Assembly (NCBI GenBank): GCA_031425455.1
Contig: JANPJJ010000152.1
Location: 1,411-65,410, forward strand
DNA from: Sandaracinobacter sp.
Lineage (GTDB): Bacteria; Pseudomonadota; Alphaproteobacteria; Sphingomonadales; Sphingomonadaceae
Direction of reading: 5' to 3'
DNA length: 64,000 bases
The notes under the pieces are model-generated. The model was not told where the DNA came from. It worked only from the letters and a program-made list of their open reading frames with translations, and did not search any database. This document shows, piece after piece, positions 2,909-45,720 of the stretch (position 1 is the stretch's first letter; every line of letters begins with the position of its first letter). Position numbers and translations under genes: made by a program.

Positions 2909-4165
<1,257 letters not shown>

Positions 4166-5643: not shown

Positions 5644-6273
5644 TTGGACCCAGACGCCCTCGACCAGCTGCGCCGCCTGTTCGTCGCGCTGGATTATGTC
5701 GGCGTCGCCATCTTCGCTGTCACCGGCGCGCTTGTCGCTGCACGGGCACGGCAGGATTTCGTAACCTGCGCCTTCTTTGCCGGGATGACGGGGATGGGCG
5801 GCGGCACGATCCGCGACCTGCTCATTGGCGCCCCGGTGTTCTGGATCGGGGAGGAGTGGTTTGTCGGCGTCTGCCTCGCAGCCACTTTCGCGGTCTGGCT
5901 GCTCCGGACCGAGCGCTGGCCGGGCAAGCCGCTGCGCTGGCTCGATGCGGTCGGATTGTCGGCCTATTGCGCCTTCGGGGCGCTGAAGGCGTTGAGTTTC
6001 GGGATCAGCCCGGTCCCGGCGCTGCTGATGGGGGTGATTACCGCGACATTCGGCGGCGTTCTGCGCGACGTCGTGGCCGGCCGGCCTTCGATCCTGCTGG
6101 CGCGCGAAATCTATGTGACCGCGGCGATCGCCGGCGCCGGTGTCACCGTTCTGCTGTCGGCCGGCTTCGGGCTGAATGGCTGGATCGCAGGCGGTCTCGG
6201 CGCCGCGAGCGCCTTTGCAATCCGCGCCGGCGCCCTGCTGCGGGATTGGAAACTGCCCATCCACCCGGGCTGA
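5644..6273 (+). CDS. Trimeric intracellular cation channel (UPF0126/YadS-like) membrane protein
   Basis: Two internal repeats with GMGGGTIRD and TFGGVLRD motifs, hydrophobic; TTG start just after lpdA. Confidence 0.88.
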   Translation: MDPDALDQLRRLFVALDYVGVAIFAVTGALVAARARQDFVTCAFFAGMTGMGGGTIRDLLIGAPVFWIGEEWFVGVCLAATFAVWLLRTERWPGKPLRWLDAVGLSAYCAFGALKALSFGISPVPALLMGVITATFGGVLRDVVAGRPSILLAREIYVTAAIAGAGVTVLLSAGFGLNGWIAGGLGAASAFAIRAGALLRDWKLPIHPG

Positions 6274-33520: not shown

Positions 33521-34477
33521 ATGGGTGAGGTGCGGCGCACGAAATTGTTGATCATCGGCTCCGGCCCGGCCGGCTATACTGCGGCCGTCTACGGCGCGCG
33601 CGCGATGCTGGCCCCGATCCTCGTGGAGGGGCTGCAACCGGGCGGCCAGCTGACGATCACCACCGATGTCGAGAACTGGCCCGGCGAAACCGAGATCATG
33701 GGCCCCGACCTGATGGCGAAGATGAGGGCGCAGGCCGAACATGTCGGGACCGATATCGTATCGGACATCATCGCGTCGGTCGATTTTTCCCGCCGCCCGT
33801 TCGTGGCTGTGGCGGATAGCGGCATGGTGATCCACGCCGATACCGTCGTGATCGCGACCGGGGCCAGTGCGCGCTGGCTTGGGCTCGACAGCGAGACAAG
33901 GCTGCGCGGGCGCGGCGTGTCGGCCTGTGCAACCTGCGACGGCTTCTTCTTCCGCGGCAAGCATGTCGCCGTGGTCGGCGGCGGCAACACTGCGGTCGAG
34001 GAGGCGATGTTCCTGACCAATTTTGCCAGCAAGGTAACCCTCATCCATCGCCGGCACGAACTCCGCGCCGACAAGACCAACCAGGCCCGGCTGTTCGCCA
34101 ACCCCAAGGTCGAGATGGTGTGGAACGCCAGCGTCAGCGAGGTGACCGGCGAGGACGGCGTGACCGGCATCGTGCTGGTCGATACCCAGACCGGGGCGAC
34201 CCGGCCGCTCGCGGTGGACGGGCTGTTCGTGGCGATCGGCCACGATCCGGCAACCGCGCTGTTCCGCGGCCAGGTCGCGATGGACGACGAGGGCTATATC
34301 CTCACCGCGCCCGACAGCACGGCCACCAGCGTGCCCGGCGTGTTCGCGGCCGGCGACGTGAAGGACAAGCTCTACCGCCAGGCCGTGACGGCGGCCGGGA
34401 TGGGCTGCATGGCCGCGCTGGAAGCCGAGCGGCTGCTGGCCCACGCCGAGCATCCAGCTGCGCTCGAAGCGGCCTGA
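33521..34477 (+). CDS. trxB: Thioredoxin reductase
   Basis: [52 protein letters not shown]. Confidence 0.98.
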
Positions 34478-34498: not shown

Positions 34499-35407
34499 GT
34501 GGCAATCGATTGGGACAAGCTGCGGCTGTTTCACGCCGTGGCGTCGGCGGGAAGCTTCACCGAGGGCGCGCGGCGTCTGAAGCTGTCGCAGCCGGCACTT
34601 TCGCGCCAGATCATCGCACTGGAAGAGTCGCTCGGCGCCAAACTATTCCACCGCCACGCCCGGGGCCTGGCGCTCACCAACGAGGGCGAGCAGCTGCGCC
34701 GCACCACCAGCCATATGGCAGACGAAATCGAGCGAACGCGAAGCTCGATCGAGGCGACTCGCAACCGGCCCACGGGCGACATCAAGCTCACCACGACCGT
34801 TAGCTTCGGGTCGAGCTGGCTGCCGGGGCAGCTGCGAGACTTCCTGGACATGTACCCGGACATCCGGATCAGCCTGATCCTGTCCGACGAGGAGCGCGAT
34901 CTCGCCCGGCACGAGGCCGACTGCGCGGTTCGTTTCCACAAGCCGCACCAGGCCGACCTCATCCAGCGTCCGCTGGCGACGATCCGGCACCGCCTGTGCG
35001 CATCGCCCGCCTATTTGGAGGCGCACGGCGAACCGCAGACGCCCGCAGACCTGATGAAGCACCGGATGATCGCCTATGGCCCCGAAGCGCCTTCCTATCT
35101 GCGCTCGATCAACTGGGCCCTGGAGCTGGGGCATGAGGGCCCCCCCCGCGAGCCGGCGCTCAGCGTGAACAACAGTTTCGGCGTGTTGCAGGCGGTAGAG
35201 GCCGGCGCGGGGATCGCGGCGTTGCCCTCCTATCTGATCCGCCACTCGGGCAAGGTGAAGGTGCTGCTGCCGGAGCTGCAAGGCGCGGTGTTCCAGACCT
35301 ATTTCGTCTATTCCGCCGAGCTGAAAGGATCGGTTCGGGTCGCCGCGCTGCGGGATTTCCTGATCAGCCGGATGACACCGGCAAACCTGGGAGACGGCAC
35401 GCGGTGA
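34499..35407 (+). CDS. LysR regulator, probable LsrB/VtlR orthologue
   Basis: DWDKLRLFH start, LFHRHARGL, ADCA.R, DLIQR, APSYL..INW; lies directly downstream of trxB with divergent lrp, the arrangement I recall for rhizobial lsrB/vtlR. Confidence 0.9.
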   Translation: MAIDWDKLRLFHAVASAGSFTEGARRLKLSQPALSRQIIALEESLGAKLFHRHARGLALTNEGEQLRRTTSHMADEIERTRSSIEATRNRPTGDIKLTTTVSFGSSWLPGQLRDFLDMYPDIRISLILSDEERDLARHEADCAVRFHKPHQADLIQRPLATIRHRLCASPAYLEAHGEPQTPADLMKHRMIAYGPEAPSYLRSINWALELGHEGPPREPALSVNNSFGVLQAVEAGAGIAALPSYLIRHSGKVKVLLPELQGAVFQTYFVYSAELKGSVRVAALRDFLISRMTPANLGDGTR

Positions 35408-35421
35408 ACCGGAGATAAATC

Positions 35422-35440
35422 CCATGCATGGCTTGCATGG
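35422..35440. promoter_or_regulatory. LysR-type recognition site (T-N11-A dyad)
   Basis: CCATGC-atggctt-GCATGG perfect inverted repeat; T35425-N11-A35437; centred about 65 nt before the predicted sRNA start. Confidence 0.6.
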
Positions 35441-35460
35441 CTGCCAAAATCCCTTCGCAC

Positions 35461-35489
35461 TTGCACAATAAGTCCGGACAACATAGATG
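35461..35489 (+). promoter_or_regulatory. Putative sigma70-type promoter of the sRNA
   Basis: TTGCAC-N17-TAGATG. Confidence 0.55.
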
Positions 35490-35494
35490 GGTGG

Positions 35495-35636
35495 GGTTGC
35501 TGCATTGCAGCGCAACCGGGACCCCTCACTCCTCCCCGAGGCTCCCGGTTCGGTCGACCACCACCCTCCCTCCCTCCCTCGGAGGTCGACCACAATCTGG
35601 GCCAGGGTTGAGCTTGCTCCCCTGGCCCAACTTTTG
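35495..35636 (+). ncRNA. Candidate sRNA with C-rich anti-SD loops (cuckoo/CcsR- or AbcR-like)
   Basis: Hairpin 35514-35550 (loop ACTCCTCCCC), hairpin 35552-35591 (loop containing CCCTCCCTCCCTCCC), terminator-like hairpin 35598-35629 followed by ACTTTT; no credible ORF. Confidence 0.7.
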
Positions 35637-35728
35637 TGCCGGAGGCGGCTGCGGCCTTGGCGCAGTCAAATTCCCCGTCGGATACCCGGCTTCCCATCCG
35701 CCCCACACCCGGCTAATCGCTGCCCGTG

Positions 35729-35805
35729 GGGCCTGTAGCTCAGTTGGTTAGAGCTGGCCGCTCATAACGGCTAGGTCGCGGGTTCGAGTCCTGCCGGGCC
35801 CACCA
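35729..35805 (+). tRNA. tRNA-Ile2 (CAT, lysidine-modified)
   Basis: Cloverleaf GGGCCTG...CGGGCCC-A-CCA with anticodon loop CTCATAA; C4:G69 and C5:G68 fit TilS determinants rather than Met. Confidence 0.92.
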
Positions 35806-44511: not shown

Positions 44512-45720
44512 ATGACAGCCCCGTCGCGCTGGCTGATCATCATGGTCGGCGTTGCCATCGGGCTCAACTATATCGATCGCGGCGCGGTTTCCGTTGCGGC
44601 GCCACTGATCCGGGACGAGTTGGGCCTTTCTGCCACAGGCTACGGCCTCGTGGTGTCCGCCTTTTTCTGGACCTATGTGCCAGCGCTGATCGCCGCCGGG
44701 TGGCTGGCAGACCGGGTGTCGGTGCATCGGCTGATGGCGGCCGGCGTTGCCATCTGGGCAGTCGCCACCTTGCTGACAGGCTTTGCCGGCGGCTTGCTGG
44801 GGCTCATCCTGTTCCGGCTGCTGATGGGGGTCGGCGAGGGCGTCGCCTTTCCGTGCGGCTCGAGGATGCTGGCCGCAGTTCCGGAAGCGAAGCGAGGCAC
44901 CGCGAACATCGCTCTGGCCTTGCCGCTCGCCGTCGGGCCGCTCGCCGGCACGCTGCTGGGCGGGCTCATTCTCACGCACCTGGGCTGGCGGGCCATGTTC
45001 CTGATCTTCGGCGTCATGACCTTGCTCTGGTTGATTCCTTGGGCCCGCGTGCGGCCCTCGGAAGCGACGGCCCATGCCACCATGCCGGCCGTGCGCTACC
45101 CGGAGCTCATGGCCTGCCGGTCGCTCTGGCTGATGTCGCTGGTGCATTTTTCCACCAGCTATGCGCTGTATTTCGTGATCGCCTGGATGCCGCTCTATCT
45201 GGTCGGCGTGCGCGGATACGATATCGGGCAGATGGCGCTGCTGACGGGCCTGTTCTATCTGGTGCAGGCGCTGAGCGGGACGGCCGTGACGCTGATAAGC
45301 GACCGTCTGATCGCGGGCGGGCGAAGTGCCTCGGCCGTTCGCCGTGCACAGATGCTGGCGTCGACGGCGGTGGCAAGCGCCGGCATCCTGCTGATCCCGC
45401 TGTCCGGCGGGCTGGCGTCTCTGATCGGGGCGTTGGTTGTAACGGCAATCGGGTTTGGCCCGGTGGGCGCGATGCTGTTCGCCACCGGGCAGACATTGGC
45501 GGGCGTCGGGTCGGCGGGCAGGTGGATGGGGGTGCAGAGCAGCTTTGGCAATCTGGCGGGGATTACGGGGCCCGTTGCAACAGGGCTGATCGTCGACTCG
45601 CTGGGCTATGGCCCTGCCTTCGCGCTGACGGCTGCGATCAGCGTCAGCGGCGCGCTGGTCTTCGCGTTCGGCGTGCCGCGGATCGCGCCGGTGGAATGGG
45701 CGCCCGTCACGTCAACCTGA
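44512..45720 (+). CDS. MFS transporter (anion:cation symporter-like)
   Basis: NYIDRGAVSVA, GWLADR, RLLMGVGEG..FP, GNLAGI.GP; about 12 TM. Confidence 0.9.
   Translation: MTAPSRWLIIMVGVAIGLNYIDRGAVSVAAPLIRDELGLSATGYGLVVSAFFWTYVPALIAAGWLADRVSVHRLMAAGVAIWAVATLLTGFAGGLLGLILFRLLMGVGEGVAFPCGSRMLAAVPEAKRGTANIALALPLAVGPLAGTLLGGLILTHLGWRAMFLIFGVMTLLWLIPWARVRPSEATAHATMPAVRYPELMACRSLWLMSLVHFSTSYALYFVIAWMPLYLVGVRGYDIGQMALLTGLFYLVQALSGTAVTLISDRLIAGGRSASAVRRAQMLASTAVASAGILLIPLSGGLASLIGALVVTAIGFGPVGAMLFATGQTLAGVGSAGRWMGVQSSFGNLAGITGPVATGLIVDSLGYGPAFALTAAISVSGALVFAFGVPRIAPVEWAPVTST

Follow-up and report, generated by a model that had tools for sequence, protein, structure and literature searches.

A conserved small RNA (sRNA) gene lies directly 3' of a gene encoding an orthologue of the LysR-type regulator LsrB/VtlR in a 64,000-nucleotide stretch of DNA from Sandaracinobacter sp. 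(contig JANPJJ010000152.1; hereafter the window), which originates from a freshwater-sediment metagenome. An unannotated sRNA had been proposed at this position from the sequence alone (hereafter the original prediction). There is a genuine, conserved RNA gene here, whose covarying fold recurs at the same genomic position across more than 60 loci. It represents an sRNA family outside Rfam that is present throughout one branch of the Sphingomonadales. We consider it likely, from the comparisons set out below, that the RNA is an independently transcribed, LsrB-activated, trans-acting sRNA with an anti-Shine-Dalgarno (anti-SD) function, and that it is the sphingomonad occupant of a trxB-lsrB-sRNA slot. 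The core of the original prediction, an sRNA with two anti-SD loops beside LsrB/VtlR, is thus borne out on comparative evidence.

The sRNA gene is located in a 321-bp spacer between the LysR-type gene and a CAU-anticodon tRNA gene (Table 1). The minimum free energy structure of positions 35495-35636 (+ strand) consists of four consecutive hairpins with a folding energy of -65.3 kcal/mol, compared with -45.7 ± 3.6 kcal/mol for dinucleotide shuffles of the same sequence (z = -5.4; 0 of 200 shuffles as good). The opposite strand folds with a z-score of -3.5. All three hairpins of the original prediction are part of this structure at the positions it gave, but it had overlooked a fourth, the 5'-terminal hairpin hp0. 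The stem of hp0, GCUGCA/UGCAGC, is swapped for GCCGUC/GACGGC or GCCGCG/CGCGGC in relatives, a compensatory change. The 5' end deduced from the promoter coincides with the start proposed originally (35495).

Hairpins 1 and 2 are separated by a single nucleotide and present the two C-rich loops. The loop of hairpin 1, ACUCCUCCCC, includes CUCCUCCC, the anti-SD motif of the ar14 and ar15 sRNA families, which accounts for eight of the nine positions of the CCUCCUCCC motif of the cuckoo sRNAs. Hairpin 2 is closed by GGUCGACC/GGUCGACC and two further pairs, and its 18-nt loop ACCCUCCCUCCCUCCCUC consists of a repeated CCCU (CCUCCCUCCC), a candidate anti-SD element that is kept across relatives; both the closing stem and the CCCU loop had been described correctly. 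An A-rich linker ahead of the terminator is also conserved, reading AAAUCU in most family members, and could be an Hfq or RNase E site. The terminator stem is followed by AC-UUUU-G, a U-tract of only four U residues in the window against five to nine in relatives. A generic terminator scan using E. coli-type rules did not flag this terminator because its loop and bulge exceed the limits of the scan. Short motifs are not enriched in the 64-kb window, with two occurrences of CTCCTCCC found against 3.1 expected and no excess of CCTCCCTCCC; the signal is the conserved structure and its context, not a motif count. A coding function was rejected, since the RNA contains no AUG, the length differences between homologues are not multiples of three, and conservation tracks the base pairs.

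Table 1. Features of the trxB-lsrB-sRNA locus in the window
Feature	Position	Strand	Remarks
trxB (thioredoxin-disulfide reductase)	33521-34477	+	TIGR01292, 394.6 bits (cut-off 343)
LysR-type regulator, LsrB/VtlR orthologue	34499-35407	+	Assigned by structure match and trxB synteny
Predicted LsrB/VtlR-type binding box ATGCATGGCTTGCATGGCTGCCAA	35424-35447	+	ATGC-N7-GCAT-N3-TG; -71 to -48 of the sRNA
Predicted sigma-70-type core promoter	35460-35488	+	-35 CTTGCA (35460-35465), 17-nt spacer, -10 ATAGAT (35483-35488)
sRNA gene	35495-35635	+	About 141 nt; predicted 5' end ± 2 nt; from covariance model R1, fold and box spacing
5'-terminal hairpin hp0	35498-35512	+	6 bp, loop AUU, no C-rich loop
Hairpin 1	35514-35550	+	37 nt, 8 + 4 bp, 10-nt loop ACUCCUCCCC at 35528-35537
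Hairpin 2	35552-35591	+	40 nt, 10 bp, 18-nt loop ACCCUCCCUCCCUCCCUC at 35563-35580
Predicted intrinsic terminator	35598-35635	+	13-bp interrupted stem (10 + 3 bp) at 35598-35629; UUUU at 35632-35635
CAU-anticodon tRNA, probably tRNA-Ile2	35729-35805	+	ARAGORN and Rfam; not part of the sRNA

Using the LysR protein as the query, 44 loci were collected from species-representative genomes, 41 of which belong to the Sphingomonadales (LysR identity to the window 66-92%). These comprise Sandaracinobacter, Sandarakinorhabdus, Sandaracinobacteroides, Thermaurantiacus, Polymorphobacter, Glacieibacterium, and metagenome-assembled genomes. A covariance model, R1, built from 14 of the sphingomonad sequences gives one match directly 3' of the LysR gene in 40 of the 41 Sphingomonadales loci, the sole exception (L031) being cut by a contig end. 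In the window it has a single match, at 35495-35634 (153.9 bits), and 20 further matches come from metagenome loci whose LysR protein is at least 59% identical. The sRNA is single copy in the window and in every related locus. An apparent second copy at L013:5652-5783 (23 bits) proved to be the tail of a coding region with a terminator after it, not a paralogue, and weak matches elsewhere in the window (32585 and 41125; E > 0.5) were disregarded.

Relatives occur in two builds. The shorter, of approximately 141 nt, has the 5' hairpin, two C-rich-loop hairpins, and the terminator; the longer, of approximately 195 nt, has three C-rich-loop hairpins and otherwise the same parts. Among 21 two-hairpin members in the model-fitted alignment, 96.5% of stem cells are paired, compared with 36-48% when the partners are slid, and 22 of 38 pairs show compensatory changes, with none of 500 shuffles reaching any of these measures. 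Both-side changes affect five of nine pairs in hairpin 1 (helices 2 and 3), five of ten in hairpin 2 (helix 4), and ten of twelve in the terminator (helices 5 and 6), and covariation is present in every helix. Because this alignment is fitted to the model, the count was redone on a structure-blind MAFFT alignment of 14 homologues, in which 92.4% of cells are paired against 33-50% with slid partners and both-side changes occur in 12 pairs (0 of 500 shuffles). The C-rich loops are conserved across relatives while the stems vary, and the G-U pairs in the stems are compatible only with the + strand.

The regulator gene 5' of the sRNA is an orthologue of LsrB/VtlR, judging from its product and its setting. 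The best PDB match of the LysR protein is 9hh1_A (E = 7.7e-82, 278 bits, full length, 43% identity), the cryo-electron microscopy structure of LsrB from A. tumefaciens (PMC11975290), and the next structure of a LysR-type transcriptional regulator reaches only 98.7 bits. None of the NCBIfam equivalog models matches the protein at its cut-off, so the orthology assignment draws on synteny and the PDB match. The gene directly 5' is trxB, the first gene of a conserved trxB-lsrB pair; of 124 related loci, 111 have a trxB homologue immediately 5' of the LysR gene and in the same orientation. Co-localisation of trxB and lsrB is a hallmark in the Rhizobiales (PMC11975290, PMC7486931). The LsrB/VtlR-like regulator of the original prediction is supported, and lsrB is probably in an operon with trxB.

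The strict form of the predicted LsrB/VtlR box, ATGC-N7-GCAT-N3-TG, has a single match in the 64-kb window, both strands taken together, 71 nt 5' of the sRNA. Related loci contain 79 matches in 606,708 bp against approximately one expected by chance; nearly all of these lie just 5' of the lsrB-adjacent sRNA, the rest being mostly the minus-strand echo of the palindrome. The window box contains verbatim the sequence TGCA-N6-GCAT (35425-35438, positions -70 to -57), which is the LsrB site of the S. meliloti nfeR1 promoter PnfeR1 at -72 to -60 (PMC10746234). It also contains, at 35435-35447 (-60 to -48), the sequence GCATGGCTGCCAA, which corresponds with one mismatch to GCAT-N3-TG-N3-T, the VtlR/LsrB box found at -61 to -49 of AbcR1 promoters (PMC7486931, PMC8844928). 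This second motif is matched perfectly in the three-hairpin relatives.

A candidate core promoter follows the box, identified using the alphaproteobacterial consensus CTTGAC-N17-CTATAT (PMC8844928). A generic E. coli-type sigma-70 scan did not flag it because it deviates from E. coli-type rules. The combination seen in AbcR1-type promoters, GCAT-N3-TG-N3-T at about -61 to -49 with sigma-70 -35 and -10 elements, is thus found in the window. In an alignment of the 105 nt 5' of the RNA from 42 loci, ATGC-N7-GCAT-RGC-TG is near-invariant (three loci have one substitution each), and TGCAC at -35 and TAnAT at -10 are conserved. The position of the box is conserved across more than 60 loci: measured from the start of the box, the 5' end of the RNA lies 71 nt away in the window, and the same distance is 71-72 nt in four sphingomonad loci that were checked, while the distance to the model start is 72-73 nt in ar15/AbcR loci with a strict box match and 70 nt in L111, a Rhizobiales-type locus described below. 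The placement of a published box at a kept position agrees with the original suggestion that the sRNA is a candidate target of the adjacent regulator. Across orders, the predicted box, its spacing, and the slot are conserved while the body of the RNA is remodelled.

Two further features of these promoters were observed. In two Polymorphobacter-like loci (L017:1040-1120 and L040:3395-3450), two to three tandem palindromic ATGCGCT-N-AGCGCAT boxes are present 5' of the sRNA promoter. The -35 region of the three-hairpin group (for example L020:3425-3445) forms a perfect palindrome, TTGTGCA-N-TGCACAA, the equivalent in the group of the window being TTCGCACTTGCACAA. A second (activation) LsrB site is one conceivable explanation, and a site for a different regulator is another.

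We propose that LsrB, a thiol/redox-responsive LysR-type activator, would bind the ATGC-N7-GCAT-N3-TG box, centred approximately 60 nt 5' of the start, and recruit RNA polymerase to a weak sigma-70 promoter, as it does for AbcR1 and NfeR1 in S. meliloti. The transcript would start at about 35495 and fold into a protective 5' hairpin, two hairpins with C/U-rich loops (ACUCCUCCCC and ACCCUCCCUCCCUCCCUC), the A-rich linker, and an intrinsic terminator. Its loops would mimic the anti-SD of 16S rRNA and pair redundantly with the GGAGG/GGGAG ribosome-binding sites of several mRNAs. Such pairing would block translation initiation and would probably accelerate mRNA decay.

Several observations weigh against this proposal. 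The last T of GCAT-N3-TG-N3-T is an A in the window. In the window protein, the counterpart of A. tumefaciens LsrB C273 is a valine, at about residue 270; C273 is the residue most important for the H2O2 phenotype, and its loss causes H2O2 sensitivity in Agrobacterium (PMC11975290). The other redox cysteine of A. tumefaciens LsrB, C144, does have a counterpart (C142), and an additional cysteine at position 166 has no A. tumefaciens counterpart. Given the valine at the C273 position and the extra cysteine, redox sensing by the window LsrB may differ from that in A. tumefaciens. At the level of the transcript, the four-U tract suggests that termination may leak towards the tRNA, and as no + strand terminator is found between lsrB and the RNA, some of the RNA could arise from lsrB read-through and processing.

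Public sequencing data also count against the proposal. No RNA run containing the window sequence was found among public sequencing runs, nor any for the related locus L043, and runs matching a close relative, L003, are mostly metagenomic DNA with flat coverage. One metatranscriptome (X24) has a depth of approximately two at the L003 homologue, with coverage that includes the promoter sequence. In two further, small runs whose RNA nature is only guessed (X23 and X25), 237-nt contigs span the homologue (L003:3472-3660), reaching approximately 15-43 nt upstream and 45-75 nt downstream of the RNA, unlike the predicted ends. In X25 the homologue is the only part of the 5.9-kb L003 locus present, and the contig gives a weak hint of an abundant RNA.

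Nor did a search for targets, in which RNAduplex was run against every possible start codon in the 64-kb window, yield a convincing candidate. The best-scoring duplexes, -40 kcal/mol (3374, - strand) and -29 kcal/mol (5856, + strand), involve spurious open reading frames: the former lies opposite a real gene (2909-4165, +) and the latter is out of frame within another (5644-6273, +). Feedback of the sRNA on lsrB was considered, as the lsrB initiation region scored -30.5, and was dropped because the G-rich stretch involved is not conserved in relatives. Many of the ABC-transporter genes that AbcR and NfeR1 usually target may also be missing from sphingomonads.

The relationship of the window RNA to known families was assessed using Rfam. 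At gathering thresholds, only two tRNAs and no sRNA family are found in the 64-kb window. The best family under permissive settings is ar14 (RF02344), which matches over its full model (1-123) with 28.5 bits (E = 0.0012; gathering score 58.8); relatives score up to 42.5 bits (L011), with 37.0 bits for L003 and 31.9 bits for L022, all below threshold. CcsR1 (RF02791; gathering score 65.3) gives no match to the window RNA at E ≤ 10. The same is true of ar15/AbcR (RF02345; gathering score 40) across positions 35380-35730, and the ar15 model likewise has no match in 16 sphingomonad-type relatives. Rhizobiales-type metagenome loci, in which LsrB is 44-48% identical to that of the window, carry bona fide ar15/AbcR RNAs in the same slot (45.8-95.3 bits). 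These true AbcRs match ar14 at 29.6-33 bits, so the ar14 score of the window RNA is no evidence of cuckoo membership; by this comparison, it reflects a shared C-rich loop on a hairpin together with a terminator. R1 scores the AbcRs at only 14-18 bits. Going by the sequence models, the window RNA belongs to a family of its own, neither ar15/AbcR nor ar14/cuckoo, and the link to one of those families drawn in the original prediction is not sustained by Rfam.

It is nevertheless conceivable that the window RNA is a diverged true cuckoo member (ar14/NfeR1/CcsR) that shares a common ancestor with the multi-copy CCUCCUCCC-loop sRNAs and acts like NfeR1, although we regard this as unlikely. Besides ar14 being the best Rfam family over its full model length, the RNA is built from a modular series of neighbouring hairpins whose candidate anti-SD loops resemble the CCUCCUCCC type, and its relatives vary between two and three such hairpins, in keeping with the variable number in cuckoo RNAs. 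The published cuckoo matcher allows two to four adjacent hairpins of 24-50 nt, with helices of at least 6 bp, loops of 9-27 nt, and linkers of at most 10 nt (PMC4615179), and the two C-rich hairpins lie within these limits (hairpin 1: 37 nt, 12 bp, 10-nt loop; hairpin 2: 40 nt, 10 bp, 18-nt loop). NfeR1 is itself activated by LsrB (PMC10746234). The slot can also host a cuckoo-type RNA: in L111 (LsrB at 1801-2676, 67% identical to A. tumefaciens LsrB) positions 2732-2932 hold a three-hairpin RNA with AUCCUCCUCCC loops that scores a near-threshold 51.8 bits with ar14 and 32 bits with CcsR1. Set against this are the ar14 scores, all below 58.8 and, for the window, at the level reached by bona fide AbcRs, and the absence of a CcsR1 match. 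NfeR1 carries its motif in all three hairpins, while the 5' hairpin and terminator of the window RNA are motif-less and its second loop is a CCCU repeat instead of CCUCCUCCC. Cuckoo RNAs are multi-copy, unlike the window RNA with one copy in 64 kb and one per related locus, and the neighbours here are trxB, lsrB, and a tRNA gene, without any of the published cuckoo neighbourhoods such as CIN1, which includes a DUF1127 gene (PMC4615179). Finally, a 2015 survey of 2,680 genomes found cuckoo members only in the Rhizobiales, the Rhodobacteraceae, and Polymorphum gilvum (PMC4615179).

A second alternative is that the RNA acts only in cis, as the 3' untranslated region or terminator of trxB-lsrB, as the 5' leader of the tRNA-Ile2 precursor, or as both, and is kept for transcript stability or processing. 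The CAU tRNA has its best matches in the E. coli collection among annotated tRNA-Ile genes, consistent with tRNA-Ile2, which carries lysidine, and its G1:C72 pair argues against an initiator tRNA. Among 56 family loci, approximately 40 carry it 3' of the sRNA on the same strand, 30-250 nt from the hairpins. This arrangement, the lack of a + strand terminator from the lsrB stop codon to the RNA, the weak U-tract in the window, and the RNA-like contigs that extend past the terminator speak for a cis-acting element. The original prediction had itself allowed that the region might be only a tRNA-Ile2 leader without conserved loops. The loops are kept, however, and the tRNA is absent from at least eight complete family loci that carry the sRNA and is inverted in L005, which argues that the sRNA is independent of the tRNA. 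Relatives also have strong terminators with five to nine U residues ahead of the tRNA. Across more than 60 loci, the spacing between the first hairpin and the box, -35, and -10 elements is constant, and the experimentally mapped AbcR1 and NfeR1 promoters share these elements (PMC8844928, PMC10746234). Conservation concentrated in single-stranded loops, with compensatory change in the stems, is moreover the pattern that marks a base-pairing seed and not a terminator. We therefore judge a purely cis-acting role to be improbable.

The C-rich loops might instead bind protein rather than mRNA, titrating or recruiting an RNA-binding protein, by analogy with CcsR and the DUF1127 protein CcaF1, though this strikes us as very improbable. 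Repeated, near-identical single-stranded motifs on a hairpin scaffold are typical of protein-sponge RNAs, the maturation of CcsR depends on the RNA-binding protein CcaF1 (PMC8034643), and the window scan gave no mRNA target. The genes linked to the window RNA, however, are trxB, lsrB, and the tRNA gene, with no DUF1127 or other RNA-binding protein gene among them, and AbcR1/2 and NfeR1, which in promoter and seed come closest among the experimentally studied RNAs, pair with ribosome-binding sites (PMC8844928, PMC10746234). Chance GC-rich hairpins in an intergenic region, to which the GC-rich genome, the unenriched short motifs, and the stable fold of the opposite strand might point, can practically be dismissed given the fold z-score of -5.4, the covariation in all helices, and the conservation of position, promoter, and terminator across more than 60 loci.

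Beyond the preferred reading of the window RNA as an LsrB-activated anti-SD sRNA, a broader evolutionary scenario seems possible, if doubtful: a single LsrB-driven anti-SD sRNA gene would have resided ancestrally in the lsrB slot and given rise to the AbcR, cuckoo/NfeR1, and sphingomonad families alike. The three lineages may have arisen through gain, loss, and duplication of hairpin modules, and the window RNA may then be a 'missing link' that combines the locus and promoter of AbcR with the repeated-hairpin build of the cuckoo RNAs. This scenario is suggested by the presence of the same box at 70-73 nt for all three kinds of slot occupant, by the near-threshold ar14 RNA in the slot of L111 and the cross-match of AbcRs to ar14, and by the occurrence of CUCCUCCC in all three families along with the two to three hairpins within the new family. 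If it is correct, two Rfam families and the new one would together form one redox-linked riboregulatory module that spans the class and is older than the divergence of the Rhizobiales and Sphingomonadales.

Other occupants of the slot were observed among the related loci. L088:1389-1807 contains two tandem ar15/AbcR copies of 95 bits each, and a separate LsrB-type box lies 72 nt 5' of each copy; in S. meliloti, AbcR1 alone is LsrB-dependent, AbcR2 being RpoH1-dependent (PMC8844928). Three loci from non-sphingomonad alphaproteobacteria with LsrB proteins 46-47% identical to that of the window (L042:3599-3676, L070:2935-3008, and L073) have a longer RNA in the slot. It starts with a GUUGCAUUGCAGC hairpin resembling hp0 and ends with CUCCCA/CCUCCC elements that give sub-threshold matches to suhB/mmgR and SorX (27-32 bits).

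Two side observations concern other RNAs. Six loci have full-length, sub-threshold matches (53-69 bits; gathering score 75) to CC2171 (RF01867), a Caulobacter sRNA family, approximately 2 kb 3' of the sRNA: L019:5460-5611, L034:5379-5531, L020:5600-5755, L022:5561-5720, L037:5645-5795, and L039:5567-5720. A tRNA-Pro gene follows directly in L019, and no such match was reported in the window. Separately, a 'tRNA-???' with a four-base anticodon called by ARAGORN at 45594-45686 was rejected as a false positive, lying inside a coding region and having no Rfam tRNA match.

Symbiosis in Sinorhizobium depends on LsrB/VtlR, as does virulence in Brucella and Agrobacterium, and much of the LsrB/VtlR regulon is executed via sRNAs (AbcR1, NfeR1, and VrsA). 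Finding the module of regulator and adjacent sRNA, with the same predicted box and spacing, in free-living freshwater Sphingomonadales would place its origin earlier, and its distribution wider, than the host-associated Rhizobiales from which it was first defined would suggest. The window RNA also offers an easily testable sRNA for an order with few studied sRNAs, SuhB being the only one characterised so far in Sphingopyxis granuli TFA (2025 preprint, 10.64898/2025.12.09.693200), and R1 is able to annotate more than 60 loci. Together, the AbcR-type, cuckoo-type, and sphingomonad-type RNAs in one slot provide a natural series for studying how anti-SD sRNAs evolve by module shuffling.

The circuit itself is already known in the Rhizobiales, and no new principle of regulation is involved here. 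Adjacency of trxB, vtlR, and abcR1/2 has been described in A. tumefaciens, S. meliloti, and Brucella (PMC7486931, PMC8844928), and LsrB activation of the cuckoo-type sRNA NfeR1 has been published (PMC10746234), so the original prediction overstated the novelty in regarding the circuit as undescribed. What is new is the sphingomonad version and its RNA family; the literature searched yielded no link of sphingomonads to LsrB, AbcR, or anti-SD sRNAs.

Among the known systems, VrsA from A. tumefaciens is similar in the way it was recognised, having been inferred from a VtlR box 5' of an intergenic transcript and then confirmed as a direct VtlR target (PMC7486931). It is set apart by its description, being far from vtlR and antisense to a gene, unlike the window RNA. 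The CcsR1-4 RNAs of Rhodobacter (Cereibacter) sphaeroides have two-hairpin units with CCUCCUCCC-type loops, which the two C-rich hairpins of the window RNA resemble, and a stress- or redox-related setting is a plausible further point in common. They derive, however, from the 3' untranslated region of a DUF1127 gene, are driven by an RpoHI/HII promoter, and occur in clusters of four to nine copies (PMC4615179, PMC8034643), whereas the window RNA is encoded by one gene, has an LsrB-type promoter, and lies next to no DUF1127 gene. With NfeR1 the window RNA shares, besides its modular hairpins, the LsrB TGCA-N6-GCAT box in its promoter.

In location and promoter the counterpart is AbcR1 (alpha-r15) of A. 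tumefaciens, S. meliloti, and Brucella. Each of the three ar14 loops carries the conserved CUCCUCCC, as does the 5' loop of ar15, both families having been reported from the Rhizobiales only (PMC3346310), and these loops are anti-SD seeds (PMC3346310, PMC10746234, PMC8844928). AbcR1 opens with its CUCCUCCC hairpin and has a second motif in a single-stranded stretch ahead of the terminator. The window RNA departs from this architecture: it opens with an additional hairpin that lacks the motif, and it displays the second motif in the loop of a hairpin, relatives having two to three such C-rich-loop hairpins. It is also single copy, compared with the tandem AbcR1/AbcR2, and its host belongs to the Sphingomonadales. 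The AbcR class is further characterised by Hfq binding and by repression of mRNAs for ABC-transporter binding proteins. Shared with AbcR1 are the slot and its orientation (trxB, lsrB/vtlR, and the sRNA directly 3', all on the + strand in the window), the predicted ATGC-N7-GCAT-N3-TG box 70-73 nt 5' of the RNA with its GCAT at about -60, the CUCCUCCC hairpin loop, a second C-rich anti-SD element, and an intrinsic terminator.

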